This document shows, piece by piece, positions 1,840 through 25,621 of a stretch of 64,000 bases of DNA (positions are counted from its first letter, which is position 1; each line of letters opens with the position of its first letter). This DNA is from an uncultured Anaerolineae bacterium (GTDB lineage: Bacteria > Chloroflexota > Anaerolineae > VGOG01). The position numbers were made by a program, and so were the translations under genes. The DNA lies in NCBI GenBank assembly GCA_964510205.1, contig CAZEBW010000004.1, positions 3,638-67,637 on the forward strand, written 5' to 3'. The notes under the pieces were generated by a model. That model ran no database searches and was not told the origin of the DNA. It was given only the letters and a program-made list of their open reading frames with translations.

Positions 1840-3929
<2,090 letters not shown>

Positions 3930-9524: not shown

Positions 9525-10298
9525 TCAAGCTTGCCCTTGCCACAGCCGCCTCAGGCGCAGGTACATCACCAGATTGTAATAAGCCATCAACAGGCTTAGG
9601 AGTAATCCGTGGAAGCCGTCCTTGTAGCCCTCCAGCGAGACGTAGCGCCGCTTGAACTCCCGGAGGGGCTGCAGGATGAAGTTATGCGGCTTGGGCCGGA
9701 CGCCTTGCTCAAACATGATCTTGGCTTCGTAGTCAGTGTAGCGGTTCTGCCTCTGGATGAATTGAGCCAGGGTGTCGTAGTTGTAGTGGATCAGGGGATG
9801 TTCCAGATGCCCCGCTTCGCCGTCCAGGATGACGACCTCGTGGACCTCCCGCTGGGGATCGTAGCGGGCTTGGCCCTGCCGCAGGAGGCGCAGTTGATAG
9901 TCGGGATACCAGCCGGCGTGGCGGATCACGCGGCCGAAGATGTAGTTGTGGCGCGGCGCCCACCAGCCCGACCGCGATTCGTCCTGGATGGCGCGGCGTA
10001 TCTCGGCCGCCAGCTCCGGTGTAGCGCGTTCGTCGGCGTCCACGAAAAACACCCAATCGCTGTCCACGGCATCCAGGGCGGCGTTGCGCTGCTGGGCGAA
10101 ATTCTGAAACGGGTGCTGGAGCACCGTCGCCCCCGCCTCTCGTGCCACCGCCACCGTGCCGTCCTGGCTGAACGAGTCGAAGACCACCACCTCGTCGGCC
10201 CATTTCACGCTGGCGATGCAGTCGGCGATGTTCTTCTCCTCGTCCTTGGTGAGAATGATGACACTCAGCTTCGACCGAGATTGGCTATTTGTCCTCAA
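9525..10298 (-). CDS. Glycosyltransferase family 2
   Basis: LSVIILTKDEEKNI...VVVFDSFSQDGT...FFVDADE (DxD) pattern. Confidence 0.85.
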   Translation of the reverse strand: MRTNSQSRSKLSVIILTKDEEKNIADCIASVKWADEVVVFDSFSQDGTVAVAREAGATVLQHPFQNFAQQRNAALDAVDSDWVFFVDADERATPELAAEIRRAIQDESRSGWWAPRHNYIFGRVIRHAGWYPDYQLRLLRQGQARYDPQREVHEVVILDGEAGHLEHPLIHYNYDTLAQFIQRQNRYTDYEAKIMFEQGVRPKPHNFILQPLREFKRRYVSLEGYKDGFHGLLLSLLMAYYNLVMYLRLRRLWQGQA

Positions 10299-10311
10299 GC
10301 AATCACTCCCT

Positions 10312-11268
10312 TTACGACATCTCCGCCACAGTCCGATACGCTGCCAGGCGTCCTTCTAGTTCCGCTTCGCTGATCTCACCGTGCTCGTGGGCGGCCATCG
10401 CTCGACGCTTCTCCGCTCGCAGTCCCAGCCGCACCATGCGGCGCACAGTCCACTGATAGAAACGGCCATAGTGCTTCTCGAACAGCAGATAGCGGCTCTT
10501 CCACAGGGCCGCAAACATCTCGCCCCGCACCTGCCGGGTGCTCCTGGCCTCGTGGTGCACCACCTCAGCCTGGGGCACGCAGTAGACGCCCCAGCCCGCT
10601 TTCTTCATCCGCAGGCACCAATCAATCTCCTCGCAGTAGATGAAAAACCGTTCGTCCAGCAGTCCCACCTCTTGGATGGCCTCCCCCCGCCCCATCAGCG
10701 CTGCTCCGAGGGGATGGTCAATAGCGAAGGGCTGCCCGCGCTCGTACAGTCGGCGGGGATAGCGGCCGTTGAGGCGGGAGTTGAGCAGGCGGTGATGGAG
10801 GGGGAAAAAGTCGAGAAAGGCCTGGGCCAGGGTGGGGAAGGCGAAGGCCGAGTGCTGCAGGCTGCCGTCGGGATAGAGCAGCTTGGCCCCGGCCACGCCG
10901 GCGCGGGGATTCTCGTCCAAAAAGCGCACCATCGTGGCCAGCGCGTCGCCCAGCACCTCCGTATCGGGATTCAGCAGCAGAACATAGCGGGGCTGCTCGT
11001 GACGCTTGACGGAGGCAAACCCCATCCCCCGCAGCGCTTGGTTGTTGGCCGCGGCAAAGCCCACGTTCGTCTCGTTGGCCATCAGCCTGGCCTGGGGGAA
11101 GCGCTCCCGCACCATCTCGATACTCCCGTCCGTGGAGGCGTTGTCCACTACCCAAACCTCGGCCGTCAGATTCGAGCGTTGCAGGCTGCCATAAACCGAG
11201 GTCAGGCAAGCTGCCAGCAGCCCCCGCACGTTCCAATTGACGATGATGATGGCCAGGTTCGAGTTCAA
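10312..11268 (-). CDS. Glycosyltransferase family 2 (rhamnosyltransferase-like)
   Basis: AIIIVNWNVRGLL...VVDNASTDGS...LLNPDTE pattern. Confidence 0.85.
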   Translation of the reverse strand: MNSNLAIIIVNWNVRGLLAACLTSVYGSLQRSNLTAEVWVVDNASTDGSIEMVRERFPQARLMANETNVGFAAANNQALRGMGFASVKRHEQPRYVLLLNPDTEVLGDALATMVRFLDENPRAGVAGAKLLYPDGSLQHSAFAFPTLAQAFLDFFPLHHRLLNSRLNGRYPRRLYERGQPFAIDHPLGAALMGRGEAIQEVGLLDERFFIYCEEIDWCLRMKKAGWGVYCVPQAEVVHHEARSTRQVRGEMFAALWKSRYLLFEKHYGRFYQWTVRRMVRLGLRAEKRRAMAAHEHGEISEAELEGRLAAYRTVAEMS

Positions 11269-11400
11269 GCCTCCCTCCTGCAGAAGCGACGTGTGCTACT
11301 GGCCTAGATTATACTCGTGGTGGGGTAAAAGGCAAGCTCTGGTTGGGGAGAAAAGAAAGAGGCCATCCCGGTGGGTGAGGGGTGGGATGGCCCGGTCAAT

Positions 11401-11430
11401 TTGACAAGATTAGAACATGTGTGCTATAAT
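11401..11430 (+). promoter_or_regulatory. Near-consensus sigma-70 promoter
   Basis: TTGACA (11401-11406), 18-nt spacer ending in TGc, TATAAT (11425-11430). A GAGGAGGGA RBS precedes ATG 11486. Confidence 0.55.
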
Positions 11431-11485
11431 CAATCTCGAAAAACCGTTCTGTTACTTACGCTTCTAATGCAGAGGAGGGAGTGAA

Positions 11486-11725
11486 ATGGGTTTGGATATT
11501 TGGTTCAAGGAAGACATTAGGAACATTCTATTGGGTGTGGAGTTGGCCAATGGGCATCTGGCCAGTCGCTACAGTGATGACGAAGTGCGGGCTTATCGTG
11601 AGGGGTTTAAGGCTGCTCTGGCAGCGACGGCGGTGAGTTTTGGGATCTATCAATTCGGACCGCGGGCGGAAGCGCATCGCATTGGGAGCCAAACTGCGCT
11701 CTCCACAATTGCAGAGCAGCCTTGA
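11486..11725 (+). CDS. Small hypothetical protein (79 aa)
   Basis: ORF with a strong RBS and promoter. No recognisable domain. Convergent with the 3' end of the island operon. Confidence 0.5.
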   Translation: MGLDIWFKEDIRNILLGVELANGHLASRYSDDEVRAYREGFKAALAATAVSFGIYQFGPRAEAHRIGSQTALSTIAEQP

Positions 11726-11840
11726 ACCCGGCTGATTGATTCTTAACCCCGATGCCATTCTCCACTGGGACGCCAGGCATGCTTTGTGCAAGGCGTGTCT
11801 GCTGCTGGTCTCGGTAGAGCGGTTGCGATGCCCCCACTTT

Positions 11841-13340
11841 TCATGGAAGCGGTGGCAGTAGTATCCTATTGATGGTTATGCCCCACTGGTCACTTCTTCG
11901 TTCAAGCCCTTCCATTAGTTGCTGGCATGCTGTGGCCTTGTTCGGCGGATCATGTACATCCTGTTGCCTGTATCCACATAACGCCTCATTCAGGAGCACG
12001 GCCATTTCCTGCACGATTTCTTTGTCCCAAATAGTCTTCATGTCGGCTTCGGTCAGTTTTTTCTTCTTGGTCTTCTTGTGGTTATTCTCACCAGATTCTC
12101 TAAAGAAGTGAGGTGCATGAACCGCTTTTTCCTTATTGACCTGGTAGTAAACTACTGGGGCAAGCTGCAAGACCCCATCTGCTAGTGCGACTTTCTGTTT
12201 GGGGCAACGGCATCTCAGCTCCATGGTCGGGATTACAGCTTGAATTTGGCTGTACAAGGGAAGCTGAAGAATACTTTGACCTTCTTCCAGCACCCTGATT
12301 TCGCGACTGTCTCCGATCACAGCAATCCTGTCGGGTGGGACGGTGAAGGTGAACGCCCTGTATCCAACGAGCACCAGAAGGACAAGCAAGAGTGGCAAGG
12401 CCGTACCCGCGGCAGTCAAGACAACGATGTGCAGTGAACTGCGCACGGAAAGCAGTATGCTCGCCAGCAGCATCAGTAGTACAATGACCACAAAGCCTGC
12501 CAACGCGCTGACAAAGGCGAGCACAGGGCTGGACAGTATTAGGTTGATGGCATCGCGAGCGTATGTGAGCAATGTCTCGAGTTGAATAGCAAGCGATGGT
12601 GGAGATTGCTCCGCCGCTCCGTCCTTCTCCTGCTCTGACGGCCTCATGCCTTGCGGACTGGCGTCTCCAGGTGGAAGGGATTCTTCGTCAATGTCCTCTG
12701 AGTTCATGGCTAGTCGTTCCGTCGTTTGCTCAGGCATACTCTCTTCACCCTCCTCTTGTTTTTGCTTCGCCTCTTGGCCTGACGGCTCCGTTTGTACGGG
12801 ACCAGCTCTTCCACGTCGAAGCGGTCCTCCGCCGGTATCTCCTGAATCCATGGCTACTTGTTGGTCTCGCAGGATCTTCCGGTATCGTGACTCGACTGTG
12901 CGCCTTAGGCGGCGGTCCATGTCCTGCAGCAGTTCCAGGCTGCGTGAACAGGCTTGACTTGCCTTGAGCCATTTGCCTTGGGCCTCGCACACCGTGGCCA
13001 ATCCAAAGAGGGCTACTGCTTGACTATGTTTGTCACTCAGAAAGAAGCGAGTGCTCTCTTGATACTTGTTGGCTGCCTCATCCAAGTGTTCCTGAGCGTG
13101 AAAGATAGCTGCGAGGTGAATAAGGGCTACCCCTTGAGCATATGAGTCATCCAACATGTCCAATTCGAGAGATCCTCTTGCTGATCTAATGCTTTGCTCA
13201 GCTATCGATTGGGCTGCTTTGTACCGGCCAGCTCGTCGCAGTTTGTCGGCCTCCTTGTTGAGCACGGTACCGCGATTAGTTCGTTCTCTTAGTTGGCGTA
13301 TGATCTGGTTGGCTTGTCGGTGGTAAGGATCGGATGTCAT
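11841..13340 (-). CDS. TPR-like N-domain / acidic linker / 2 TM / divergent SPFH (band-7)-like C-domain protein
   Basis: N-terminal helical-repeat region (AAQSIAEQS...LFGLATVCEAQGKWLKA), an E/S/P-rich linker and two hydrophobic helices. The C-terminal pattern (RIAVIG..REIRVLEEGQ...VVYYQV...WGITINRILLPP) is collinear with the SPFH fold. Start set at MTSDPY (ATG 13340). Confidence 0.55.
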   Translation of the reverse strand: MTSDPYHRQANQIIRQLRERTNRGTVLNKEADKLRRAGRYKAAQSIAEQSIRSARGSLELDMLDDSYAQGVALIHLAAIFHAQEHLDEAANKYQESTRFFLSDKHSQAVALFGLATVCEAQGKWLKASQACSRSLELLQDMDRRLRRTVESRYRKILRDQQVAMDSGDTGGGPLRRGRAGPVQTEPSGQEAKQKQEEGEESMPEQTTERLAMNSEDIDEESLPPGDASPQGMRPSEQEKDGAAEQSPPSLAIQLETLLTYARDAINLILSSPVLAFVSALAGFVVIVLLMLLASILLSVRSSLHIVVLTAAGTALPLLLVLLVLVGYRAFTFTVPPDRIAVIGDSREIRVLEEGQSILQLPLYSQIQAVIPTMELRCRCPKQKVALADGVLQLAPVVYYQVNKEKAVHAPHFFRESGENNHKKTKKKKLTEADMKTIWDKEIVQEMAVLLNEALCGYRQQDVHDPPNKATACQQLMEGLERRSDQWGITINRILLPPLP

Positions 13341-13419
13341 TGAAGTCCCCCCATAGAAGGAAAGCCCACCGGGATGCAGGAGAGTTGGGCCGGATAAACT
13401 AAGGTGTTCTGCGATATCG

Positions 13420-14727
13420 CTATGGGCTGCCAGGCGGCAATGCAATCGCTGATCTTATGGATTGCAGAGTGGCCATCACGTCGGAAGGCAGAAGGATCTT
13501 GGTCGCTGGATCGGAGGCCATTTTCTCCAGAGCTTCAATGAAACGCAAGGCTATGAATTGTGGAATCGGGATGTTCTTAGTCTCCATCTGACGGAAGCCT
13601 TCGGTGATGGCTATGATCATTCTAGTTTGAGCTTGTGCTCTGGCAACCTCAATCAGGTTATATACTTCAGCCTGTGCCTCGCCTTCAGTGATGAGGACTT
13701 GCTTGCGACTCTCCGCCATGCGCGCTTCCCAGTCTACTTGCCATTTCTTTTGCATTCCTTCCCTAATTTCCGGAGGCACCTCAATATTCAGCATCTGAAA
13801 GCTTATGATAGTGCCTCCCCAGCCTTCGGCTATCTTTCGCAGGGAATCTCGGACACGCTGCTTGATGTCGCTTTGAGGGAACGTGTTGGGATCCAGTGGG
13901 TCAAAGATATCATCCAAGTAACGTTTGCCAATCTCGTCGCGAAGCAGATTCTTGGCTACTTCGATAGTGGCGATTTCCCAGTCATAGCTATCGTAGGTAG
14001 CTTTGAGGACCGCCTCTCTAGAGAATGGATAGGGCTTCTCTGGGTTCCACACCTTGGCTGGATCCTGCGCGATGCGGAATAGAACGCTATAGTGGATGGT
14101 CACCGGTATGCCATCTTTGGTTGAGGCATTATCTAGCGTTCCTCTCCTGAACCGTTTCCGTGTGACGATGACCTTCCTGATACTTTCAAAAGGCTTGGTG
14201 CGCACTGCACCGGGCCCCTCAATGCGAGTGAATTTCCCCATCCGCTCGAAGACAACGGCTTGCTCGTTGCGTATTACGATCAAATTGGCTACCTTGAAGC
14301 CGGCGAGTGCGCCTTTGGACTTCACCTCGTCCACTTGGCCATCTTCAACGATGATGTAGCTTCCCAGGAATAGCTCTCCGGTGACAAAAGAGAGTAAATA
14401 CCGAAAGCAGTCCCACTGATTGCCGCCCCGGCTGACCAGTATGAGTTGCGAGGCCAGAAACAGGAGACTGCCTGTTAAGAATAGATAGACAGCCAGCCCC
14501 AATACTGCCCCCGTCAGGCCTCTCGTGACGAAGGAGAAGGTCAGAAACACCCCACTTGCAGTGAAGAATATCGCCAGCGCCACGCCCTTGCTCTGGCCCA
14601 TCCTGACAAGACACCCAAGGGAGACCACAGCGAGCCATACTAGGCCCCATTTGGGCTCGTGAACTACAGAGACTAAAATCAGTAGTGGAAGCAGGGCTAC
14701 GGACAACACAAGCAAGATCTTCTTCAT
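13420..14727 (-). CDS. SPFH/band-7 (stomatin/prohibitin-like) membrane protein
   Basis: Four N-terminal TM helices, then VIRNEQAVVFERMGKF...TKDGIPVTIHYSVLFRI...GWGGTIISFQMLNIEVP and a coiled-coil tail. AAGGAGAG RBS precedes ATG 14727. Confidence 0.75.
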   Translation of the reverse strand: MKKILLVLSVALLPLLILVSVVHEPKWGLVWLAVVSLGCLVRMGQSKGVALAIFFTASGVFLTFSFVTRGLTGAVLGLAVYLFLTGSLLFLASQLILVSRGGNQWDCFRYLLSFVTGELFLGSYIIVEDGQVDEVKSKGALAGFKVANLIVIRNEQAVVFERMGKFTRIEGPGAVRTKPFESIRKVIVTRKRFRRGTLDNASTKDGIPVTIHYSVLFRIAQDPAKVWNPEKPYPFSREAVLKATYDSYDWEIATIEVAKNLLRDEIGKRYLDDIFDPLDPNTFPQSDIKQRVRDSLRKIAEGWGGTIISFQMLNIEVPPEIREGMQKKWQVDWEARMAESRKQVLITEGEAQAEVYNLIEVARAQAQTRMIIAITEGFRQMETKNIPIPQFIALRFIEALEKMASDPATKILLPSDVMATLQSIRSAIALPPGSP

Positions 14728-14903
14728 AGCACAAGCTCTCCTTGTTTCTGTCAGCACTCTTAAGGTACGTGAGACTGCCGTCCAGTGCGTTCAACACGAG
14801 CTTATCTGACGGCGCCACAGGTATCACCCAGTTTCCATAGATCGAGGCAAAACCAAAAGGCCGCGGCTCGATATCGAAAACGTTTTGCAATGAGGGTGCT
14901 CAC

Positions 14904-16418
14904 TCAGCTCTGGGCGATCAAAATGGGGGAAGCCCAAGTCAAGTCATCCTTATTACGCATTGCCAGCTCTCGCCGGGCATCCAGCAGTGCCAGTTCAGGG
15001 CTGCCGTGCTGGAGCATAGAACGATAGAACGCCAGTGCCATTTCCTTGGCGCTCACTGCCGGCACTGACCACCTGTAGCCCAAAACAGACGGCACCCCTG
15101 ATTGGATAATTCCATCAGCGATACCCAGGTAGTCATCGTCCAGCAAATCAACCGGGCTGCCGGTACGAGTGCCCTCGCAGCACGTCAGGTGAAACAAACG
15201 GGTGTCAGAATCTTCCAACAGCCATCTCAGCTCATTTCCGGTCATTGGCTTTATATTCCCTGACCGGTTGCTGTCTTCCCAGAAGAACAATCTGCTCTGT
15301 TCCGGAGACCCCTCGTGAAAGACTCCGTGACCAACATAATGCACGATGTGATGCTTACACCCACGGAGCATTTCTTGCACTGCACTGTATGTAGCTGCTT
15401 CGGTTCTGACATGAGTCAAATCCAACCAGTTCAGTGGCGACAGCAAATCCACCAACTCTTCTCCGATTTTGTCAATCAGATCAATGCGTGGCTCAGTGTT
15501 GGACACGAGCAGTAGAACACGCAGGTTCTCGCCTGAACTGGCGAGACGTCGTATGAGTTCAGCAGAGATGGGTTCACGCCTCGTCACTACGCCTCGAATT
15601 TGGCGGACCATTGGATGGAGCAGTGTAAGGTAATCACCAGCCTCATCGGAAAAGATGAACTCCAGTGGCAATCCTGCCAGATCTCGGGTGGATTCAAACA
15701 CGAGGTGCAAGTATTGGTTCATTTGCGTCCTACCGAGTGCTCGGTGATACCCGTTGAGTACCGCAGAGTGCTGTTCGAACAGCAGGCGGTATAGCTCCCG
15801 TCCCACGTCTTTGATCAGAAAGCGGCGGTCTGCTGTGCTCATCATGCGTTCGCTTCCCCAGCGTGCAAAACGTGGAGCGTCGAGGCTTAGTGGATTGACA
15901 GAGGTGTATGTGAAGCGGATGTTGCCACGGCCCCGCACAAGAAGTCGCTGCCCTGGCTCTAGCGAGATTGTAATTTCGCACTCTTGGCTCGGCTCAAAGA
16001 CCGGCAATTGCCATTTCAATGACCTACTGATCACGCTATCCATCACTTTAACCACATCTTCTATCATGGTCTTTGGGAGGTACTCGGCTACAAGTCGCCG
16101 TCCAGTTGCATCAGGTTCCAGGGCGCGCCTCATCGTGTCAGGGGTACCATAGCCGGTGATAATGACAATCGGGAGCCCAGGGAATCGTCGTTTAAGCTCA
16201 GCAGCTAGATCAAGGCCTTCTAGGTTGCCTTCATCTGTCTCGTCCAAGCGCATGTCAAGTAGGGCTGCGTCGAAATGCTCTCGGTCAGACAAATCCAGGG
16301 CTCGCGCAACACTGGCAGCCGTTTTGGTTGCGTAGCCCTCGTCAATCAAGAGTTGTGAAAGGGTCACTCGCCAGTCAAACAAATCATCTACGATAAGCAC
16401 CTGGATTTGTTTAGTCAT
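14904..16418 (-). CDS. Response-regulator receiver fused to CHAT (caspase-like) peptidase domain
   Basis: REC features: VLIVDD...LLDMRLDE...ITGYG...LPK. CHAT features: HIVHYVGHG (His), LFHLTCCEG (Cys), SVLGYRWSV. The ATG overlaps the stop of the upstream kinase by 8 nt. Confidence 0.85.
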   Translation of the reverse strand: MTKQIQVLIVDDLFDWRVTLSQLLIDEGYATKTAASVARALDLSDREHFDAALLDMRLDETDEGNLEGLDLAAELKRRFPGLPIVIITGYGTPDTMRRALEPDATGRRLVAEYLPKTMIEDVVKVMDSVISRSLKWQLPVFEPSQECEITISLEPGQRLLVRGRGNIRFTYTSVNPLSLDAPRFARWGSERMMSTADRRFLIKDVGRELYRLLFEQHSAVLNGYHRALGRTQMNQYLHLVFESTRDLAGLPLEFIFSDEAGDYLTLLHPMVRQIRGVVTRREPISAELIRRLASSGENLRVLLLVSNTEPRIDLIDKIGEELVDLLSPLNWLDLTHVRTEAATYSAVQEMLRGCKHHIVHYVGHGVFHEGSPEQSRLFFWEDSNRSGNIKPMTGNELRWLLEDSDTRLFHLTCCEGTRTGSPVDLLDDDYLGIADGIIQSGVPSVLGYRWSVPAVSAKEMALAFYRSMLQHGSPELALLDARRELAMRNKDDLTWASPILIAQS

Positions 16419-17205
16419 GGCTGCTATCCGTGGGAGTTTCTATGGCTTTGATCACAGGGAGTGTGATCGCTATCGTCGTGCCGTGGCCAATCTCAGTATG
16501 TTTTACACTAATCTCTCCACCAAACCTGGCAAGTATCAAATGCGCTAACCAGAGACCCAGGCCCTTGTTGGTCCCGGTTGACGGAATCGGACCCTGAAAA
16601 AGATCGGCAAGAATGAGTTGCGGTATCCCTGTTCCGTTATCTGCAATCTCTACTCGCACTGTGTTGTCCGCGTCCACGTACTGGGTATGGATGTCAATAT
16701 GTCCGGGTTTTTTGCTTGTTGCTTGGATCGAGTTTTCGAGCACCGCCCGGAAAACCTCCGCGAGCAAGTGGCTATCAGCACGCACGGGAGGGACATCCTC
16801 TGGAAAATCAAAACTCACCCGTACTGTCTTGGAAGTGTGGCTAGCAGAAAGTTCTTCCCAGACCTCATACAGCAGTGAGTTTACGTCTAAGGGCATAGGC
16901 GGCTCACTCGGCTCTCTGAGTACTTCGACGGCGGCACTTAATTCGCTCAAACTGCTAATGGTCTTTTCTATGGCTGTGACCAGGTCGAGGGCGGCTCTAT
17001 CGTTGCTATTGATGTATTCCTTAAGACGACCGACTCGAACTCCCAGCAACCCAGTCAAGTTGGAGAGCTGGTGCAGTAATGCAGCAGAAGCCATCCCCAG
17101 TGCAATGAGGCTGGCCTCCTCCCCGTGGCTACGGTTAGGATGTGCACTTTCTTGCGGTAGGGGTGGATTTGGTCTCTGACTTTCCCGGTCATTTGGTGGA
17201 CTCAT
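16411..17205 (-). CDS. Sensor-less cytoplasmic histidine kinase (DHp + HATPase_c only)
   Basis: H-box-like AALLHQLSNLTG. ATPase N/G boxes VLENSIQAT, IADNGTGIP, GLGLWLAHLI. No TM or sensor domain. Confidence 0.8.
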   Translation of the reverse strand: MSPPNDRESQRPNPPLPQESAHPNRSHGEEASLIALGMASAALLHQLSNLTGLLGVRVGRLKEYINSNDRAALDLVTAIEKTISSLSELSAAVEVLREPSEPPMPLDVNSLLYEVWEELSASHTSKTVRVSFDFPEDVPPVRADSHLLAEVFRAVLENSIQATSKKPGHIDIHTQYVDADNTVRVEIADNGTGIPQLILADLFQGPIPSTGTNKGLGLWLAHLILARFGGEISVKHTEIGHGTTIAITLPVIKAIETPTDSSHD

Positions 17206-17241
17206 TTGTCGGATTCTCCCAAGCGCGGCGCGTCCTTCAGT

Positions 17242-18717
17242 TCACTCCTGATGAATCAAGATAGGCGACAACCAGGTTGGATCGTTTCTGTCCATAGCGG
17301 CCAGCTCGCGCCTTGCGCTCCAGAGGGCGAACTCCGGCCCCCCTTGCTCCAATAAGGACTGGTAGAAAGCCAACGCCAGCCGACGGGCTCCATCATCTGA
17401 CACAGGCCAGCGGAAGCCCAGCACCGAGGGTGCGCCGGCCTGCGCGACAGCGTCGGCCAGCCCAAGGAAATCGTCATCCAGCAAAGCAGCCTGAGCGCCG
17501 CTGGCTGTGCCATAGCAACTGCTCATGTACACCAGACGTGCTTCCGAGCGCCTGAGTAGCATCTTTAGTTCGGTTGCTTTCATCGGCATGACGCCACCTT
17601 GCTTATTCTCCTGGGCCCAGAAGTATAGGCTGCTATCTTCAGGGGACTCGGTCCTGTACGAGCCATGTCCTGCGTAATGTACAATGTCGTAACTGGGCTT
17701 CCCCAACTCTGATCTTACGCGCTCATACGTGGCGCGCTCCGTGGGGATGAGTTTAACACTGACAGGGATGCAGTCCTGGCTCTTTAAGTACTCGTACAGT
17801 GCCTGCGCCTCGGCATCTACGCCGTCTATTGGAGGCTGTGTGTTAGAGGCGATAATCAGAATTCGCAATTCCTGAGTCAGTGCCAGCAGCGAAGGGGAAA
17901 TCAGGCTGCGTTTCGGGGTAGCATTGTATAGAAAACGGGCGAGGGGGTGTTGAAGTACCAGGTACTCTGGAGGATCATCCGAGCGCATAAATTCCAATGG
18001 TAGTCTGAGAAATTCCCTGGGCGTCTCAAAAAGCATTGAAAACGACTGGCTCTTGGCGCGCGCTTCCACATAGGCTTTTTCGGCTTCAGGGTGCTCAGTA
18101 AATATGTCACGCCACAGACTGTGGCCGATCTCCCCAACCTGGAAACGCAAATTGCTCACGTCTCTTCTGGCGAGTTCTGTCCGCCTTGCATAGCGTTCGA
18201 GTGCCACACGCAACACTTTCCACGAGCGCAAGGAACAGACGTGGCGACCGCGCGCCCTGATCACCAGAGGCTGTCCGGCTGTGAGTGATAGAGATAGCTG
18301 GGTAGCATCACCTGTCTTCTCAAACCTCGGCTTGGTTGCCTCCTGGCGTGCTTTCGCGATAGTCTCCAGAACTTGTTCAGCCACATCCGGGGTTTTTTCG
18401 ATGAAGTCAACTACTCCGAGATATCGAATCGCGCGTACAATTTGCTTGGTTCTCGGGTAGCGTGTGAGCAGGATGACGCGAACCCGCGGATTGAGGGCGC
18501 GGAATGCCATCGCCAGGCTCAATCCGCTTTCGTCCTCTTCATCATCTCCGTGCAGGCGCACGTCAATGAGAGCAAAGTCGAACGGTTCTTGCGTGACAGC
18601 AACCAGGGCTTGTTCCTCGTTGGCCGCTGACCGGACGGTGTATCCTTCATCGGAAAGTCGCCCTGCTAACGTGGTACAGAAATCGGCATGGTCATCTACT
18701 ATCAGAATCTTGCACAT
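17242..18717 (-). CDS. Response-regulator receiver fused to CHAT (caspase-like) peptidase domain
   Basis: REC features: ILIVDD...LIDVRLHGDDEEDE...LLTRY...IEK. CHAT features: DIVHYAGHG (His), LVYMSSCYG (Cys), SVLGFRWPV. Start chosen at MCKILIVDD (ATG 18717, GAGGG RBS); upstream in-frame ATGs at 18732 and 18768 are possible. Confidence 0.85.
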   Translation of the reverse strand: MCKILIVDDHADFCTTLAGRLSDEGYTVRSAANEEQALVAVTQEPFDFALIDVRLHGDDEEDESGLSLAMAFRALNPRVRVILLTRYPRTKQIVRAIRYLGVVDFIEKTPDVAEQVLETIAKARQEATKPRFEKTGDATQLSLSLTAGQPLVIRARGRHVCSLRSWKVLRVALERYARRTELARRDVSNLRFQVGEIGHSLWRDIFTEHPEAEKAYVEARAKSQSFSMLFETPREFLRLPLEFMRSDDPPEYLVLQHPLARFLYNATPKRSLISPSLLALTQELRILIIASNTQPPIDGVDAEAQALYEYLKSQDCIPVSVKLIPTERATYERVRSELGKPSYDIVHYAGHGSYRTESPEDSSLYFWAQENKQGGVMPMKATELKMLLRRSEARLVYMSSCYGTASGAQAALLDDDFLGLADAVAQAGAPSVLGFRWPVSDDGARRLALAFYQSLLEQGGPEFALWSARRELAAMDRNDPTWLSPILIHQE

Positions 18718-18757
18718 TGCTACCCTCTTCATCAACTGTCTGATGGGACGCTCCGGG

Positions 18758-19639
18758 TCATCCAGCATTCCCCCAATTTGCCTGTATGTAACTCGTTGTC
18801 GCCTTTACGTCCAGGCTGCGAGTCGAATTGCCAATACGCACCCAGAACTTGTGAACATCGCCCGTCGCCAGGAACACCGGCTTTGGGCTTTTTTCAATCG
18901 CAACGATGCAGACGTGTTTACCATCTATGGGTTCGAAGCGTGTGCGAATGTATGGCATATATTCTAGACCCACATAGGTCTTGACAATATCCGTCAATGC
19001 CAATTGAAACCCATCGGTATTTGGCTTGCGCAGAGTTTGTAAGTCTTTTTCAATACCTAGCACCGTGCCATCGTCAGCGACGCCAATGAGTAGGGTCCCA
19101 CCCTTGCTGTTCAACATTCCTGTGATTGCCACGGCGATCGTTTCCTGCAGGCTCTTGTTAGTTGTGTTTTTCTTGAAATCCCAGCGGATACTGGACTTGA
19201 ATTCCACGTGGTCATTTTCACCTTGGGCAATCAAATTGAGTACCGAGCGTTCAAATGCGCGGTTCACGTACTCCGGCAGTTGGTCTACTTCAGATTTTTC
19301 CAGGAAGCCAAACGCTGGTGATACTCCCTCGCGATCAGGTTGAAGGACCTCCCTCACCATCCTGACGTTTGCATAGCCGGTCAAGATAATGATGGCCACA
19401 TGGGGGTCCTTCTCTCTGATCTCGCGCATAAGCAAGATGCCATCTTGGTTGTCCTCGTCGGCCTCGTCCAAGCGCACGTCCAGAACTGCGACGTGAAAAC
19501 GCTCGGCGTCCAACATTTGCAGAGCCTCAACTCTGCTGGATGCCGAGCGTACTTCATAGCCTTCGTCTGACAAAAGGCCCGACAATGTTGCGCACACGTC
19601 GGGCAGGTCATCTACTACGAGAACGCGACCTTTGTACAT
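18758..19639 (-). CDS. Response-regulator receiver fused to AlbA_2 (Schlafen-like, putative nucleic-acid-binding) domain
   Basis: REC features: VLVVDD...VLDVRLDEADEDN...LTGYA...LEK. C-terminal features: GENDHVEFKSS...MLNSKGGTLLIGVADDGTVLGI, matching the AlbA_2/divergent-AAA pattern. AGGAG RBS precedes ATG 19639. Confidence 0.75.
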   Translation of the reverse strand: MYKGRVLVVDDLPDVCATLSGLLSDEGYEVRSASSRVEALQMLDAERFHVAVLDVRLDEADEDNQDGILLMREIREKDPHVAIIILTGYANVRMVREVLQPDREGVSPAFGFLEKSEVDQLPEYVNRAFERSVLNLIAQGENDHVEFKSSIRWDFKKNTTNKSLQETIAVAITGMLNSKGGTLLIGVADDGTVLGIEKDLQTLRKPNTDGFQLALTDIVKTYVGLEYMPYIRTRFEPIDGKHVCIVAIEKSPKPVFLATGDVHKFWVRIGNSTRSLDVKATTSYIQANWGNAG

Positions 19640-19665
19640 GGCACTCCTGCCGATTGCATCTTGTC

Positions 19666-20067
19666 TTATCGTGCCAACACTTCCTGTACTATCTTGACCA
19701 ACTCTTCGGTCTGGGTTTTCGGGATATAGTTCGCTACAAGTCTCCGGCCCTGCGTATCTGGCTCCATTGCCCGTCTCATGGTATCCGGCGTGCCGTAGCC
19801 TGTGATCATTACGACTTCGGTAGTGGGCCAATGTTGTTTGATCTCATCCGCCAGGTCCAGCCCCTCGGTGTTACTCTCGTCCGTCTCGTCCAGGCGCATG
19901 TCCAGTACTGCCAGATCAAAATGGCTGGTTTTGAGCAACTCCAATGCCGCAGGCGAAGACTCGGCAACCTGGACATCGTATCCCGCGTCCTCCAACAAGC
20001 CACCGAGCGTCGTGCGCCAATCTAGCAGGTCATCTACCACCAGAATCTTCTGCCGTTTGTTTGTCAT
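19666..20067 (-). CDS. Stand-alone response-regulator receiver
   Basis: ILVVDD...VLDMRLDETDESN...ITGYG...IPK. Closest in sequence to the REC of the 14904-16418 protein. Shows an ATGA start/stop overlap with the upstream gene. Confidence 0.9.
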   Translation of the reverse strand: MTNKRQKILVVDDLLDWRTTLGGLLEDAGYDVQVAESSPAALELLKTSHFDLAVLDMRLDETDESNTEGLDLADEIKQHWPTTEVVMITGYGTPDTMRRAMEPDTQGRRLVANYIPKTQTEELVKIVQEVLAR

Positions 20068-20453
20068 TCTCTTACTCCTTCGTGCTTACCATGGCGATTA
20101 CGCGGCACCTGTGGAAACAGAATGATCTCCCTGACCTGCTCGAAGAGATCCTCGCTTCCGAAAGACTTGGCGAAGTAGCGCATGGCTCCCAACCGGTAGG
20201 CCGCAAGCGCCTCTTGGGTCGTGGGTTGTACTGTTGTTACGACCACCCGCTTATCAGAGTATTTCTCAGCGATGACTGCAAGCACGTCCAGGCGGCGGGA
20301 GCTTGCGATGACCAGGTCGAACTGATCCGCTTCGAGTTCAGCGAGTGCTGCCTTGGTGTCAGGCGCAACGACGATTTCAAACTTGTTGAGATCGCTCTTG
20401 GCGAACTCAATCCAGCGAGGTTCGTCGTCAATGATCAGAATGCGAGTTTTCAT
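20064..20453 (-). CDS. Atypical (pseudo-)receiver domain protein; phospho-acceptor Asp replaced by Ser
   Basis: ILIIDDE...FDLVIASSRR...VVVTT...FAKSF. The acidic pair, Thr and Lys are kept, but the D57-equivalent reads S. AGGAGG lies 7 nt upstream of ATG 20453. Confidence 0.7.
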   Translation of the reverse strand: MKTRILIIDDEPRWIEFAKSDLNKFEIVVAPDTKAALAELEADQFDLVIASSRRLDVLAVIAEKYSDKRVVVTTVQPTTQEALAAYRLGAMRYFAKSFGSEDLFEQVREIILFPQVPRNRHGKHEGVRE

Positions 20454-20455
20454 GA

Positions 20456-23400
20456 TCACACCTCCTTTCCCGTCCCCGGCGCTGGGATCTGAACCAGCAT
20501 TGTTGTTCCAGTGGGATCGGTCTCTTCTATTATAGCATCACCGCCAATACTTTGCAACATCAGTCGGCTGAGCCAGAGACCCAGACCTGCCCCTCCGCCT
20601 GGCTCCTTGGATGGGACTGGTTTGACGAAGAGACGTTGCTGGACTTGCAGTGGGATGCCCGGTCCTGTATCCTGAACCCGCACACAGATATTACTGTCGG
20701 TCAGACGACTGGTAACTGCTAACTGGCCACCCGCCTTCATTGCTCGGTAGGCATTGTCAACCAAGTTGTAGAAGACCTCAGCGATCTGACCGATCGGGGC
20801 CCGAATCTGCGGCAGCGATTGATCCAGGTCTAGGGTATGTTCGATCGTTGATCGAATGGGATCCGTTCGCCACTGTTCTCTCACTTTACCCACCACGTCA
20901 CTCAGCACTGCGTTAATGTCCACATCCTGATCCTCGACCTCTCGCAGCGGTTCTTGAATGCGCGCGATGATATCCGACGTATAGCGGGCGTTACGTTCGA
21001 TGATGTCAAGGATCTCTGCAATCGTATCATTCGACATATCAACGCGCTTCCGCAGGCGCGTCACGTTGGGAACGATGATGTTGAAGGTATTATTGACACG
21101 ATGTTGTAAAGCTGCGATGGCCGTGCCCAGTGTGGCCAAGCGCTTGGTCGCGATGACTTCACTGCGTGCCTCCTCATATAACCGGGCATTCTCAAGGGCA
21201 ATGGCTGCCTGGTTGGCCATAGAGGAGATGACCTGCAAGTCCTGTTCATCGTAGGCCTGCTCTCTTTCCCAGTCGTAGATAGCGATCACGCCCAGAACCC
21301 TATTCTCCAGAACCATCGGGACACCTATCCAAGATTTGGCGACACGCCCGATGAACTCTTGATGTCCGGGCTGTCCATACCACGCTTTAGATTCCACTTG
21401 GGTGCGATGCAGGATTGGCTTCTTGGTAAGGATGACTTCTTCGGTCTTACCCCGCTTCTCCATATCAGCCTTGCGGGGATCGTAATGCACCTGCTCACCG
21501 TGCTCCGTTGCCAGACCGAAGCGGATCATCCCTGTTTCCTCGTCATACAGCGCGATGTACATGTCCTGTGCGCCGGTCAACTCCCTGGCCTGCTCGTAGA
21601 TTAGCTCCAGAATCTCATCTTGCTTCAGACGAATACCGGAGGTTAGTGCCTGTCCTACCTCATTCAGTGCCGCCAACGCCTGAACGCGCCGTGCGAGCTG
21701 CTGGTTGATCTCGTAGTAAAGCGTTGCATTATCCAACGCGATTGCCGCTTGGTTGGCCACAGAGGAGATGACCTGCAAGTCCTGTTCATCGTAGGCCTGC
21801 TCTCTTTCCCAGTCATAAATGGCGATCATACCCAGTACCTTCTCACCTGTGACCATGGGAACGCCCAAGTAAGAAGGCTGAACACGCCCGATGAACTCTT
21901 GATGTCCGGGCTGTCCATACCACGCTTTAGATTCCACTTGGGTGCGATGCAGGATTGGCTTCTTGGTAAGGATGACTTCTTCGGTCTTACCCCGCTTCTC
22001 CATATCAGCCTTGCGGGGATCGTAATGCACCTGCTCACCGTGCTCCGTTGCCAGACCGAAGCGGATCATCCCTGTTTCCTCGTCATACAGCGCGATGTAC
22101 ATGTCCTGTGCGCCGGTCAACTCCCTGGCCTGCTCGTAGATTAGCTCCAGAATCTCATCTTGCTTCAGACGAATACCGGAGGTTAGTGTCTGTCCCACCT
22201 CGTTCACTGCCTGTATAGCTTTATACAAGCGTGCGCTTTTAATAGCAACCGCTGCTGCCCCAGCTAGGGCCTCAACCAGACGCATGTGATCGTCTGTAAA
22301 GGCTCCGATTTGGGTACTCTCCAGATTGAGCGTTCCAATCACTCTGTCACGGTGTATCAACGGTGTTGTGAGTTCGGATTGTACTTCCTCAAACCACTCC
22401 TTGTAGTACGGATCGCTTTTGATATCGTTGCAAAGATATGTCTTTCTACTCAAGGCAACGTGTCCGTTGATGCTCGTCTCGTCTAGGGGTAGTCTCGTGA
22501 GGGTTCGCGTCGGCGTCTCATCCCTCTTGTTTCTCGCCCCAAATCGCAGTTCACGTGTCCGCTCGTCCAGCAACCAAATACTCGTATACTTGGCTGGCGT
22601 CAGCCTGGCCGCTTGCTCTGCGATTTGCTCCAGCAGATCCTCTAGGGAAGCAGTGCCAATGAGCGCGTATAGGTTCTGAAGAGCTCTGATATCATCAATT
22701 CGCTCTTGTAGGCTAGTCTGAGCCTCTTCGTACACACGGGCGTTATAGATAGCTGTCGCCGCTTGATTAGCGAACAGCTCGATAGCCCCCCGTTGCTCAG
22801 GAGTGAAGGGTTGTCGGCTCCGGTAATTGACGAACATAGCGCCCACGGTTTCGCCTGCTGCTTCGAGGGGGACGGCGGCTGACGATAGGATTCCCTCGCG
22901 CACTACAAAGCGCTTTTCCGGGCGCTCAGGGCGCTCTACGGTGAATGGGCCGGTGAGCAGGGTATCCGTCTGAGTATCGGGAGAGTAGAGGGGCTCTCCA
23001 CCCTCGACCACTTTCACAACGACATCATCCTTGAATATTTCGTCCTTGACAACTGTGGGGTCTCGGCGCTCTCCTTCCAAGATAGGTGGCATGATGTAAC
23101 GGTCATCCGCCTCAACGTACTGGTACACATCCACGAGATCGGCACCCAATACACTCCTGGCACTTCGCGCCACCTGACGCAATACCTCTCTCAACCCCTG
23201 TGCCGAAAGCTCAGCCGAGAGTATTCGTCCCCCAATCTGGTGCAGCCTCTGCAAGACTGCAGCCCGGCTGGTTGCCTGCTCAAGAAGTTGAGCATTGTGT
23301 ACAGCCACGGCGGACTGGCTGGCCACCGCCTCTAACAGCATCTGATCGTGCTCGTCAAAGCCGCTCAGCCCGTCCATATCAGCAGAGATCACCCCAATAA

Positions 23401-24193
23401 CCTCGTCTTGCAAGATTATGGGCGCCAGCACCATTGAGCGCTCGACGATGTCTGACGACAAACCGGGGACAAACTGAGGGTGCTTGACCGCATCCGGGAC
23501 GAGTTCTGATTGCTTGGTTTGGGCTACCCACCCGGCCAACCCGACCCCTTGGGCGAACTGCTGTCGTGCGATGCCTGCTGACGAGGCAGCTTCCAACGCT
23601 AGGTCACCGCTCTTATCCACTAGAAAAACGCTGATGTGCTTGCAATCCAGCACTCTTTCTGCGGCTTGCATAATGCGTGCGAAAAGATCGGCACGGCGCA
23701 ATTCGGAACTGATCAAGAGGCTCACTGCGTTCAGGGTCGCCAGATCCTGAATTCGACGCTGCGTGGCAGCCACTTGAGCGGAAGAACTCTCAATCAGCGC
23801 CTTCTCGAAATCAGTGAAATCCCTTGCCTCACGGGTATAAACGTCAAGCACACCAACGATTTTCCTTTTTACTCGTAGTGGTACCACCATAGCCGACTTC
23901 AGTCCCATAGCGGTGGTTTCTGGTTTGTACTTCCAGCGAGCATCGGTGTCAACGTCTGTCACGACGATTGCCTGTTCAGTCGCAAAAACGTCAGACGCGA
24001 CACTGGGCTCATCCAGGCGCAGAAACGCATCGCGAACGTATTCCTCTGACAACTCTGTCGCTGCAGCGATCCGGAGGGTTTCCCCCGTTTCATCGGCAAG
24101 CCAGATACAGGCCGGCAGTCCCAGAGTCTGGCTTATGGTCTCCACCACGGGTTGAAAGAACTGCTTTTTATCAAGTTCTTGAGAGGGGATCAT
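20456..24193 (-). CDS. Multi-GAF cytoplasmic histidine kinase (HisKA_2-like H-box + HATPase_c)
   Basis: 1245 aa with about five to six GAF-like modules judged by periodic motifs (e.g. VPL...VIGVL...). The C-terminus has AALQHRVNNTFN (an HRVxN-type H-box) plus LVDNAYRAM, VQDTGPGIP, GLGLWLSRLM. No TM segment. AAGGAGAG RBS. Confidence 0.9.
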   Translation of the reverse strand: MIPSQELDKKQFFQPVVETISQTLGLPACIWLADETGETLRIAAATELSEEYVRDAFLRLDEPSVASDVFATEQAIVVTDVDTDARWKYKPETTAMGLKSAMVVPLRVKRKIVGVLDVYTREARDFTDFEKALIESSSAQVAATQRRIQDLATLNAVSLLISSELRRADLFARIMQAAERVLDCKHISVFLVDKSGDLALEAASSAGIARQQFAQGVGLAGWVAQTKQSELVPDAVKHPQFVPGLSSDIVERSMVLAPIILQDEVIGVISADMDGLSGFDEHDQMLLEAVASQSAVAVHNAQLLEQATSRAAVLQRLHQIGGRILSAELSAQGLREVLRQVARSARSVLGADLVDVYQYVEADDRYIMPPILEGERRDPTVVKDEIFKDDVVVKVVEGGEPLYSPDTQTDTLLTGPFTVERPERPEKRFVVREGILSSAAVPLEAAGETVGAMFVNYRSRQPFTPEQRGAIELFANQAATAIYNARVYEEAQTSLQERIDDIRALQNLYALIGTASLEDLLEQIAEQAARLTPAKYTSIWLLDERTRELRFGARNKRDETPTRTLTRLPLDETSINGHVALSRKTYLCNDIKSDPYYKEWFEEVQSELTTPLIHRDRVIGTLNLESTQIGAFTDDHMRLVEALAGAAAVAIKSARLYKAIQAVNEVGQTLTSGIRLKQDEILELIYEQARELTGAQDMYIALYDEETGMIRFGLATEHGEQVHYDPRKADMEKRGKTEEVILTKKPILHRTQVESKAWYGQPGHQEFIGRVQPSYLGVPMVTGEKVLGMIAIYDWEREQAYDEQDLQVISSVANQAAIALDNATLYYEINQQLARRVQALAALNEVGQALTSGIRLKQDEILELIYEQARELTGAQDMYIALYDEETGMIRFGLATEHGEQVHYDPRKADMEKRGKTEEVILTKKPILHRTQVESKAWYGQPGHQEFIGRVAKSWIGVPMVLENRVLGVIAIYDWEREQAYDEQDLQVISSMANQAAIALENARLYEEARSEVIATKRLATLGTAIAALQHRVNNTFNIIVPNVTRLRKRVDMSNDTIAEILDIIERNARYTSDIIARIQEPLREVEDQDVDINAVLSDVVGKVREQWRTDPIRSTIEHTLDLDQSLPQIRAPIGQIAEVFYNLVDNAYRAMKAGGQLAVTSRLTDSNICVRVQDTGPGIPLQVQQRLFVKPVPSKEPGGGAGLGLWLSRLMLQSIGGDAIIEETDPTGTTMLVQIPAPGTGKEV
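21211..22200. repeat. In-frame 540-bp tandem duplication (one GAF module) inside the kinase gene
   Basis: 21342-21648 is identical to 21882-22188 (307/307 by eye). 21221-21274 is identical to 21761-21814. The roughly 65 bp between the two blocks are strongly diverged. Confidence 0.9.
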
Positions 24194-24228
24194 GGGTCAC
24201 TCTCCTTGTCATCTGTAAATGGGCAGAT

Positions 24229-25569
24229 TCAATTATGAGGTTGGTGTCTCCAGACTTCCAATGACTCCCTATATCCCGCTTCCGAAAATGCTAACCCCTT
24301 CTCCCTCAGCATCATAGCGGTGAGAAGGTGAGGTAATCCTTTCTTCTTTTCCAGGAAGACGATTTGTGGGCCGGAAAGCGTACGCCTACCATTCTTCTTC
24401 AGGAATTGCATGAGCTGGCGACGTCCGCGCTCAACGGTCTTTAAGAAACGCTGTGCCTCGGTTGAGAAATAGGATTCCAGTTTCTCCTCGTCCTCCGGCG
24501 CCGCTCGCGAAGCGTTGCGCACTGTTTGGGAAATGCAATCTATCAGTGTGGGTAGAAACCCCCTGGTTTCGATGCCCAGAACAATCTGCCGCGTTACGAC
24601 ACCTCGAATCAATAGCTTAATGAGACGCTCTCGCCCATTCTTACCTGGAGGTGGAGCGCCATCTGCGACTAGGAAATACAGCGCCTTTAGATAATCTGCC
24701 ATCACATGTTCGCTGGCAGTGATCAACGATTCTGGCAGGTCAGGTGCGCGAACGAGACTATGTATGGTGTCTGTGATCGGTTGGTAACTACTTATCTCAA
24801 ACACTGATTGAGCATCTTGCAGGATCATTGCCACGCGCTCAGTGCCAATCACCGTTTCGAAGAAAGGCTCCGTCATCGGTTGGAGCCTTTGGGTCTTAGT
24901 GTCTATCTCGGTGCTGACAAAGAGTGAATTGGCGAATTCAACGAACCGACCGCACTGGCAAGGCGGCCGACAATCGGGGCCGCAGCCAAAGACCGCGCCT
25001 CGATCAAAGAACATCTCAGTATTGGGCCCGCATTTACGATAGCGAACTACCCCTTCAATGCCATTTCCTTGTTTCCAGAGGTTGTCCTTGACTCCCAGAC
25101 CTATGATCTGCTCTTCAGGCATCCCGATACTCCGCCAAGCTTGATGAGCCTCTACATCCTCGTCAAACGCATGCTTTGAAATCTTACCCCCGGCGAAATA
25201 AGTGACCCATATGTTGTCTGGCTTGATTCTCAGGTTTGAGGTCATGAACTCCCACATTTGCTGGATAACAGTTGCCTTGCTGAGAGCATTAAAGGAAAAA
25301 GCGGCGGGCATTTCAAACAAGCTTAGGTGCACATTGTCGGTTCCAACGGTGTCAATGTCGAAATATCTGAAGCACTTTTGCACCAGTGCATACTTATGCC
25401 CGGCACGCTTGCCCATCTGATCAAGAGCCTTTTCAAATTGCGGTAATCCAGCACTCATTACGAACGACATAGGAATAGAGGGATGCAACAGCGAGGCACT
25501 AGGCAGAACGGAGAATCCTTTGCCCTGGTAATAATCGAGGAACGTTTGGCTAATGGCTGGGGATCGCAT
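24229..25569 (-). CDS. Alanyl-tRNA synthetase catalytic-core paralog (aminoacylation + tRNA-recognition domains only; no editing or C-Ala domains)
   Basis: 446 aa, collinear with roughly the first 450 residues of bacterial AlaRS. Matching blocks: FLDYYQGKGF, VMSAGLPQF (vs FTNAGMNQF), QKCFRYFDIDTVG (vs QRCVR..NDLENVG), LFEMPAAFSF (vs FFEMLGNFSF), KCGPNTEMFFD (vs GPCGPCTEIFYD), ETVIGTERV (vs DTGMGLERI), YFLVADGAPPPGKNGRE (vs AFLIADGVMPSNENRGY). Confidence 0.8.
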   Translation of the reverse strand: MRSPAISQTFLDYYQGKGFSVLPSASLLHPSIPMSFVMSAGLPQFEKALDQMGKRAGHKYALVQKCFRYFDIDTVGTDNVHLSLFEMPAAFSFNALSKATVIQQMWEFMTSNLRIKPDNIWVTYFAGGKISKHAFDEDVEAHQAWRSIGMPEEQIIGLGVKDNLWKQGNGIEGVVRYRKCGPNTEMFFDRGAVFGCGPDCRPPCQCGRFVEFANSLFVSTEIDTKTQRLQPMTEPFFETVIGTERVAMILQDAQSVFEISSYQPITDTIHSLVRAPDLPESLITASEHVMADYLKALYFLVADGAPPPGKNGRERLIKLLIRGVVTRQIVLGIETRGFLPTLIDCISQTVRNASRAAPEDEEKLESYFSTEAQRFLKTVERGRRQLMQFLKKNGRRTLSGPQIVFLEKKKGLPHLLTAMMLREKGLAFSEAGYRESLEVWRHQPHN

Positions 25570-25621
25570 TTTCTAGCTCCAAATCACGCGATACACCGAA
25601 CGTTATTGTAGATGCATGAAT

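Follow-up and report, generated by a model that had tools for sequence, protein, structure and literature searches.

What a pair of SPFH membrane proteins does at the end of an operon that also encodes CHAT proteases is the question raised by the DNA analyzed here, a 64,000-nt stretch (the window; positions 3,638 to 67,637 of contig CAZEBW010000004.1, forward strand) from an uncultured Anaerolineae bacterium. The two proteins, hereafter protein 1 and protein 2, are encoded by the last two genes of a co-directional minus-strand series that runs from 25569 to 11841, and a sequence-only reading had described them as two dissimilar SPFH proteins that terminate the operon and echo known SPFH–protease partnerships. 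With moderate confidence, our analysis supports reading the two as a heteromeric SPFH membrane module, which likely tethers or compartmentalizes the soluble system encoded with it at the membrane. The features of the two proteins, including their transmembrane (TM) segments, are as follows.

13420-14727, minus strand: protein 1, 435 aa, multi-TM Band_7/SPFH protein
14347-14727, minus strand: multi-TM N-terminus of protein 1 (residues 1-127), 4-5 hydrophobic segments by hydropathy
13699-14277, minus strand: SPFH/Band_7 domain of protein 1 (residues 151-343), PF01145 at E 8.3e-18
13423-13698, minus strand: A/E-rich helix and conserved C-terminal tail of protein 1
11841-13340, minus strand: protein 2, 499 aa, with TPR, acidic linker, two TM helices and truncated SPFH core
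12846-13340, minus strand: TPR domain of protein 2 (residues 1-165), TPR_12 at E 6.7e-10
12594-12845, minus strand: acidic disordered linker of about 85 aa (residues 166-249), net charge -12, E/G/P/Q/S-rich
12351-12593, minus strand: two long hydrophobic helices (residues 250-330), membrane anchor by hydropathy
11844-12350, minus strand: degenerate SPFH core (residues 331-499)
12054-12086, minus strand: Lys-rich loop inside the SPFH core (residues 419-429), low model confidence

Protein 1 matched PF01145 with 65.5 bits (cut-off 23.6) and the stomatin PH1511 in the PDB at 4.4e-4. An A/E-rich helix at about residues 325-375 follows the SPFH domain, and the C-terminal tail, which in the family alignment reads FIALRFIEALEKMAsDPATKILLP, is FIALRFIEALEKMASDPATKILLP in protein 1 itself. 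The order of membrane anchor, SPFH domain, coiled-coil helix and C-terminal region, as judged from the sequence, is thus the layout of the SPFH superfamily. However, canonical SPFH proteins have one N-terminal TM helix (PMC12624060), while the protein-1 family has 3-5 N-terminal hydrophobic segments, so that the earlier description of a conventional 4-TM band-7 protein with a coiled-coil tail held for the Band_7 domain, the helix and the tail, but not for the word conventional. Both ORFs were recovered on the minus strand at the positions given in the sequence-only reading. Their start codons are preceded by Shine-Dalgarno-like sequences (AAGGAGAG before the ATG at 14727 for protein 1, GGGGGGA before the ATG at 13340 for protein 2), and the N-termini of both proteins are conserved in homologues.

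The SPFH identity of protein 2 had to be traced through its relatives. A Pfam search of the window sequence of protein 2 gave no Band_7 match even at E values up to 1, BLASTP between proteins 1 and 2 was not significant (a colinear 19% identity only, at E 6), and word-indexed searches with protein 2, either whole or as a C-terminal profile, retrieved only itself and one fragment. Homologues of protein 2 were gathered via the neighbors of protein-1 homologues (loci L001, L008 and L009) and by an exhaustive hidden Markov model search over 1.84 billion representatives, in which the protein-2 family proved very rare, with nine clusters at E < 1e-3. Members of this family matched Band_7 directly (P0019 at 4e-9, P0025 at 7.6e-8 and P0018 at 5.8e-6), and the protein-2 family profile aligned by hhalign over 148 columns with the SPFH domain of the protein-1 family (probability 94.2%, E 1.1e-7). 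An AlphaFold2 (AF2) model of protein 2 from the single sequence was unusable, with a predicted local distance difference test score (pLDDT) of 46; the model from an alignment of the protein-2 family only reached pLDDT 80-92 in the C-terminal domain, which has the SPFH1+SPFH2 alpha/beta fold. These results indicate that the C-terminal domain of protein 2 is a truncated SPFH core. The sequence-only reading had named the lack of SPFH similarity in profile or structure searches as the outcome that would speak against it; the similarity was found, and its statement that two dissimilar SPFH proteins end the operon was borne out.

The other parts of protein 2 that the same reading had listed, namely a TPR-like domain, an acidic linker and two TM helices, were all recovered with the SPFH-like domain by Pfam, hydropathy and the model, and the Lys-rich insert is present as a low-confidence loop at a position that carries a variable basic insertion throughout the protein-2 family. 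The AF2 model places helices at residues 250-270, 272-300 and 304-330 and gives pLDDT < 50 at residues 174-247, within the linker, whose length and sequence differ across the family. The TPR fold resembles those of peptide-binding TPRs and Rap-type TPRs, a likeness that is generic. Beyond the last SPFH strand, protein 2 and all nine family representatives have no more than about 10 residues. A CC1/CC2 coiled-coil wall and a C-terminal cap define cage-forming SPFH proteins (PMC12624060), and neither was found in protein 2 or its family; since protein 2 has no coiled-coil and C-terminal parts, proteins 1 and 2 are not equal wall subunits of the HflK/HflC kind. A TPR on a tether, followed by two TM helices and an SPFH core that lacks coiled coil, makes up a rare new architecture that is mis-annotated publicly. 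The public (NCBI-sourced) protein for 11841-13340 is a 298-aa form that starts at the internal Met202 (P0001) and omits the TPR; because the N-terminal TPR is conserved in the same open reading frame (ORF) of homologues, sequence conservation supports the 499-aa form over this call. Two further ideas on protein 2 were rejected: the Cys-x-Cys of RCRCPKQ as a metal or redox site, as only close relatives keep it and the motif elsewhere is YT(T/S)PKQ, and the acidic linker insertion as a mark of CHAT-linked loci, as L008 has the insertion and no CHAT gene upstream.

The pair is a conserved, self-contained Anaerolineae module. SPFH1 and the TPR-2TM-SPFH core are adjacent in L001, L008, L009, L012/13, L014-16, L018, L020 and L022, with L012 being an identical copy of the window locus that gives no independent evidence of conservation. 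Close relatives carry the pair at 84% (L001 and L022), 80% (L008) and 63% (L009) identity, and distant Anaerolineae metagenome-assembled genomes (MAGs) and metagenome contigs carry it at 27-32% identity (L014-L016, L018 and L020). Its surroundings vary, with a radical SAM gene in L009, an LTD giant protein in L014 and L016, SIR2, NACHT-TPR and rSAM-SPASM genes in L018 and PfkB among the contexts, and the pair occurs without adjacent CHAT genes in L008, L009, L014 and L018. Because of this variation and the absence of a CHAT gene immediately upstream in L008, CHAT genes are not obligatory neighbors of the pair. A small convergent gene accompanies the module, as listed here with its promoter.

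11486-11725, plus strand: convergent small ORF, 79 aa
11401-11430, plus strand: own 12/12 promoter of the 79-aa ORF, perfect TTGACA-18-TATAAT with extended -10

Convergent homologues of the 79-aa ORF directly follow the SPFH module in L001, L008, L013-L016, L018 and L021, with 41-100% identity and a conserved N-terminal 55 aa, and no Pfam family matched the ORF. The distant type-I loci have, after the TPR-SPFH2 gene, a third conserved gene that encodes a TM segment and a C-terminal domain of about 170 aa; no Pfam family was found for this domain, and the gene is absent from the window.

L014, 12420-13130: third type-I gene
L016, 12381-13217: third type-I gene
L018, 3152-5194: third type-I gene (C-terminal part)
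L020, 2552-2863: third type-I gene

Genes of immune type were also observed near SPFH modules.

L027, 9473-10942: TIR-FGE-sulfatase gene after the pair
L018, 7200-12580: SIR2_2, NACHT-TPR and rSAM-SPASM genes
P0013 contig: HEPN_Swt1, AAA_16-CHAT and AAA_16-TPR genes

To which genes the module is tied was then evaluated from the operon in the window and its counterparts. The genes upstream of the pair encode an alanyl-tRNA synthetase-like (AlaRS-like) enzyme, kinases, receiver (REC) proteins and the CHAT proteases.

25622-25650, minus strand: sigma-70-like promoter, 12/12, extended -10, 53 nt upstream of the AlaRS-like start
24229-25569, minus strand: AlaRS catalytic-domain paralogue (446 aa), first operon gene; Pfam tRNA-synt_2c 5.2e-70
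20456-24193, minus strand: soluble histidine kinase with six GAF domains (Pfam)
20064-20459 and 19666-20067, minus strand: two single-domain REC proteins
18758-19639, minus strand: REC-Schlafen/AlbA_2 protein (Pfam); likely start giving 293 aa, as called on L012
17242-18768, minus strand: REC-CHAT protease 1; Pfam CHAT 1.5e-33, Response_reg 8e-16
16411-17205, minus strand: small soluble histidine-kinase-like protein (HATPase_c)
14904-16418, minus strand: REC-CHAT protease 2; Pfam CHAT 4.4e-27, Response_reg 1.9e-15
14728-14903, minus strand: intergenic gap of 176 nt between REC-CHAT2 and protein 1

The promoter at 25622-25650 is a candidate operon promoter by its sequence. The AlaRS-like protein is stand-alone, without editing or C-terminal domains, and scored 224 bits against TIGR alaS, under the cut-off of 457. 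The REC-Schlafen ORF itself reaches 19831. Both CHAT proteins have the REC domain at the N-terminus and no TPR (Pfam), and direct reading of the translations showed that the His and Cys motifs are kept in both, as HYVGHG and LTCCEG in REC-CHAT2. The 176-nt gap is conserved in the related locus L001, and neither a promoter-like nor a terminator-like site was detected in it. No NfeD/OB-fold or ClpP-like S49 domain was found in the operon by Pfam, and no FtsH among the operon proteins or annotated neighbors, where the only such protease is a Lon (31248-33704).

A local tblastn survey over loci L001-L043 was used to follow the cassette of AlaRS-like enzyme, multi-GAF kinase, two REC proteins, REC-Schlafen and REC-CHAT. 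In L032, the order is Zn-ribbon TM protein, SPFH-A, SPFH-B, TPR-S24, AlaRS-like, GAF kinase, REC, REC, REC-Schlafen and REC-CHAT, so that the cassette genes stand in the window order (AlaRS-like 63%, REC 82% and 80%, REC-Schlafen 76% and REC-CHAT 67% identical to the window), while the SPFH module is only 28% identical and lies at the opposite (5') end of the operon. Similarly, type-II SPFH modules precede the AlaRS-like and GAF-kinase genes in L026, L030 and L031, whose 3' ends are cut by contig ends; between the SPFH and AlaRS-like genes there is a TPR-S24 gene in L031, none in L026 and a weak TPR-like match in L030. In L016, from an Anaerolineales MAG, the genes behind the type-I pair encode, in turn, a 278-aa protein, an S1-REC-kinase, a REC-6xGAF protein and an AlaRS-like protein (42% identity), with no CHAT. 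Altogether, L016, L026 and L030-L032 combine an AlaRS-like homologue at 42-63% identity with GAF kinases and an SPFH module. Because the same cassette recurs in other metagenomes, rearranged and with a different type of SPFH module, these results suggest that an undescribed signaling system has an SPFH module as an integral membrane component whose type can be exchanged. The partner that is constant across the module types and L016 is the AlaRS-like enzyme with the multi-GAF phosphorelay, not CHAT specifically.

The type-II module was observed in L023, L026, L030-L032, L034 and L039-L041. It contains a protein of about 320-350 aa with a Zn-ribbon, multiple TM segments and a C-terminal beta-rich part, which has no Pfam match and is encoded before or after two full-length multi-TM SPFH paralogues; a TPR-S24(-like) protein is often present as well.

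The origin of the TPR on protein 2 was traced to such SPFH-linked peptidases. In L004-L007, loci without CHAT genes, the stop codon of an SPFH1 homologue (P0010) overlaps the start codon of the next gene, which encodes a soluble TPR-Peptidase_S24 protein, whose TPR is 31% identical to that of protein 2 (E 6e-18). The C-terminal half of the L004 protein aligns to residues 70-177 of E. coli LexA (E 3.7e-16), and within its S24 domain the cleavage site of LexA (VAAGEP) is intact, as are the Ser (GDSM) and Lys of the catalytic dyad; in these relatives the TPR takes the place of the LexA DNA-binding domain. TPR-S24 genes stand directly after SPFH genes in L031/L032 as well, and coordinates were recorded for two of the TPR-LexA-like proteins.

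L004, 11197-12162: TPR-LexA-like protein directly after the SPFH gene
L032, 4270-5325: TPR-LexA-like protein directly after the SPFH genes

An S24 protein is also encoded next after the SPFH gene of the P0013 contig, the S24 domain being the part that was identified there, and L034 has a TPR and a degenerate S24-like domain in one protein, a domain type that in L026 and L041 is fused to the C-terminus of the SPFH protein. The sequence-only reading had taken the TPR of protein 2 for the one usually fused to CHAT proteins, moved to the SPFH partner. This did not hold: since its homologues are the TPRs of SPFH-adjacent TPR-S24 peptidases, the TPR is native to the SPFH module and not displaced from CHAT proteins. 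The three fusions, TPR-S24, SPFH-S24-like and TPR-SPFH core, point to one physical complex of the SPFH proteins and the TPR partner. The interpretation in the sequence-only reading was supported in part: relatives join the SPFH family to an S24 peptidase, which echoes SPFH–protease partnerships, and an SPFH module is repeatedly linked to the REC-CHAT-containing cassette across rearranged loci, but the pair also occurs without adjacent CHAT genes.

In the mechanism that we infer, which covers cage formation, topology, docking and any cleavage, protein 1 would assemble into an SPFH ring or cage at the cytoplasmic side of the membrane, for which its anchor, SPFH domain, coiled-coil helix and conserved tail supply the necessary parts. 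Protein 2 would be an accessory adaptor held at or in this assembly by its truncated SPFH core and two TM helices, with the TPR hanging in the cytoplasm on the long flexible tether. The pair alone may be bound to the membrane and the rest of the system soluble, with the multi-GAF kinase signaling via the two REC proteins to the REC-Schlafen and REC-CHAT outputs, together with the AlaRS-like enzyme. A Pfam scan, in which TM helices were not predicted, found no membrane-domain family in the other operon proteins, and for this reason a membrane platform is the most economical reading of the pair. The TPR arm could serve as a docking and regulated element that binds the conserved tail of protein 1 or a soluble component, and the tether may be cut in trans by the REC-CHAT proteases; it is a plausible site of regulated cleavage by analogy, because relatives carry the homologous TPR on a self-cleaving S24 domain. 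That proteolytic release of the TPR arm from interchangeable SPFH cages would be the key regulated step, in cis via S24 in some lineages and here in trans via CHAT cleavage of the acidic tether, is a more doubtful extension of the same analogy. Precedents for SPFH–kinase and SPFH–protease partnerships are HflKC-BarA, HflKC-FtsH and PH1510-PH1511 (PMC13086221).

Several points weigh against such a functional tie. Many loci have an SPFH module of either type but no cassette (L002, L004, L014, L018, L027, L034 and L038-41), and L008 (80% identity) and L009 (63%) have no CHAT gene immediately upstream. Few independent lineages carry the linkage, all of them probably Anaerolineae, so that it could reflect shared ancestry, and it was seen from SPFH loci toward the cassette, not from cassettes toward SPFH. 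In PADLOC 2.0, protein 1 had no family matches and protein 2 matched only weak generic TPR models (E about 0.007-0.009). The pair and its small convergent gene might then be an independent housekeeping SPFH microdomain module that merely lies next to the CHAT operon without functional coupling, a view consistent with L008 and L009, with the occurrence of the pair and its 79-aa companion in many unrelated contexts (PfkB, the LTD giant protein and radical SAM), and with the 176-nt gap that parts the pair from REC-CHAT2. However, the cassette linkage recurs with two SPFH module types, in different gene orders and at 28-100% SPFH identity, L016 repeats it, and the gap shows neither promoter nor terminator; we consider uncoupled housekeeping unlikely.

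Two other explanations accept the coupling and differ from a membrane platform in what the pair does. Caspase-like proteases cleave bacterial gasdermins, and Craspase cleaves Csx30; by analogy, the pair could be the membrane effector or substrate of a cell-death or anti-phage system, in which phosphorylated REC-CHAT would cleave protein 2 in its linker, or protein 1 in its tail, and thereby convert or release a membrane-perturbing assembly. The long exposed disordered linker adjoining the TM anchor, the position of REC-CHAT2 immediately upstream of the pair and the lower GC content of the operon (0.50-0.55, under 0.58-0.64 in the flanks) fit this idea, and TIR, SIR2, NACHT/STAND, HEPN and AAA_16-CHAT genes near SPFH modules of the family on other contigs give weak hints of it. 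It is nevertheless quite improbable, as PADLOC gave no match, protein 2 has no recognizable pore-forming or toxic domain, the CHAT gene of L032 lies about 8 kb from the SPFH module, and L016 has the module with kinase and AlaRS-like genes but no CHAT. That last locus is more in line with an upstream sensor, in which the SPFH assembly would read the state of the membrane or envelope and signal via the TPR arm to the GAF-kinase phosphorelay, with S24 self-cleavage as a relay step in relatives and CHAT and Schlafen as downstream outputs. LexA undergoes signal-triggered self-cleavage, and the LexA-type S24 domain of the relatives would be such a switch. Moreover, in L026 and L030-32 the AlaRS-like and kinase genes come directly after the SPFH module, which stands at the 5' end, and the BarA kinase is recruited by HflKC (PMC13086221). 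Against a sensor role, the kinase already has six GAF sensor domains and the window holds no S24 domain, which leaves this possibility, like the effector, with a low probability.

Compared with known systems, the pair resembles HflK/HflC-FtsH in that two adjacent paralogous SPFH genes share an operon with proteases. However, protein 1 scored 26.5 bits on TIGR01933 hflK (cut-off 159.4) and protein 2 gave no match, protein 2 has no coiled-coil wall or cap, the operon contains no FtsH and its proteases are soluble REC-CHAT cysteine proteases, and the predicted topology is cytoplasmic instead of periplasmic. The NfeD/STOPP-stomatin (PH1510-PH1511) and QmcA-YbbJ systems likewise encode an SPFH protein with a dedicated membrane partner, and in PH1510/PH1511 the protease domain of the partner cleaves the SPFH protein (PMC13086221). 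The relatives of the pair match this in part by joining an SPFH protein to a TPR-S24 peptidase, but that peptidase is of the LexA type, the window partner carries both a TPR and an SPFH core of its own, and no adjacent NfeD (TM and OB-fold) or ClpP-like gene was found.

Bacterial flotillins FloA/FloT scaffold sensor kinases, and the window likewise links a membrane SPFH scaffold to histidine-kinase signaling, here by genomic linkage alone; unlike them, the pair has no flotillin-type extended coiled coil, and its kinases are soluble. In TPR-CHAT (Csx29/Craspase) and caspase-gasdermin pairs, the protease is encoded next to its substrate, comparable to a CHAT protease beside a candidate substrate and a TPR within the system. 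In contrast to Csx29/Craspase, the TPR here is not on the CHAT protein and has its homologues in SPFH-linked TPR-S24 proteins, activation would be by REC phosphorylation instead of CRISPR RNA, and no gasdermin or Csx30-like protein is present. Finally, the L004 and L032 relatives recall LexA/UmuD by carrying a protein-2-like TPR before the S24 switch domain, while protein 2 has two TM helices and an SPFH core in place of S24, so that any cleavage would be in trans. Membership of the pair in the HflK/HflC, NfeD-stomatin, flotillin or PADLOC defense classes was rejected on these grounds.

Within the library of papers that was searched, none joined SPFH with 'CHAT domain' and none used 'REC-CHAT', and a comparative study of the PSP system reports Band-7 associations but not an SPFH-CHAT one (PMC11237479). 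What is of a known kind is thus the SPFH scaffold partnered with proteases or signaling, and what is new is the truncated, TPR-bearing SPFH subunit and the undescribed genomic partnership. SPFH proteins are universal, and their bacterial functions are mostly unclear beyond HflK/C-FtsH and NfeD; this locus is a compact, genetically defined tie of an SPFH module to a specific signaling and protease cassette, in which the natural module swaps and the TPR/S24/SPFH fusions point to binding partners. If the link is functional, it raises testable questions on the docking partner of the TPR, its release by CHAT or S24 and the gating of SPFH cages, and if release of the TPR is true, it would be the first link of SPFH cages to caspase-like proteases. 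The locus also highlights an undescribed system that combines an AlaRS-like enzyme with CHAT proteases and a Schlafen-like protein.

Some minor features of the operon region were noted. Its GC content is 0.50-0.55 (about 11300-26300), below the 0.58-0.64 of flanks that carry housekeeping genes (GT2 glycosyltransferases, Mur ligase, Lon and enolase), and this difference suggests an acquired island. The AlaRS-like enzyme and the REC-Schlafen/AlbA_2 protein hint at a tRNA-related theme; no tRNA genes were found in the window, and no Rfam matches within 10000-28000. Two small ORFs are placed between the operon promoter and a flanking CHU_C-like gene.

26080-26245, minus strand: small lipoprotein-like ORF (MKKIVLLLLFCFLMPVVMAC...), upstream of the next
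25705-26070: 121-aa ORF

The GAF kinase gene contains two copies of a 306-nt segment (21341-21646 and 21881-22186, minus strand), which codes for 102 aa of a GAF domain. The two copies are 540 nt apart and 99.7% identical at the DNA level, which looks like a very recent internal tandem duplication.

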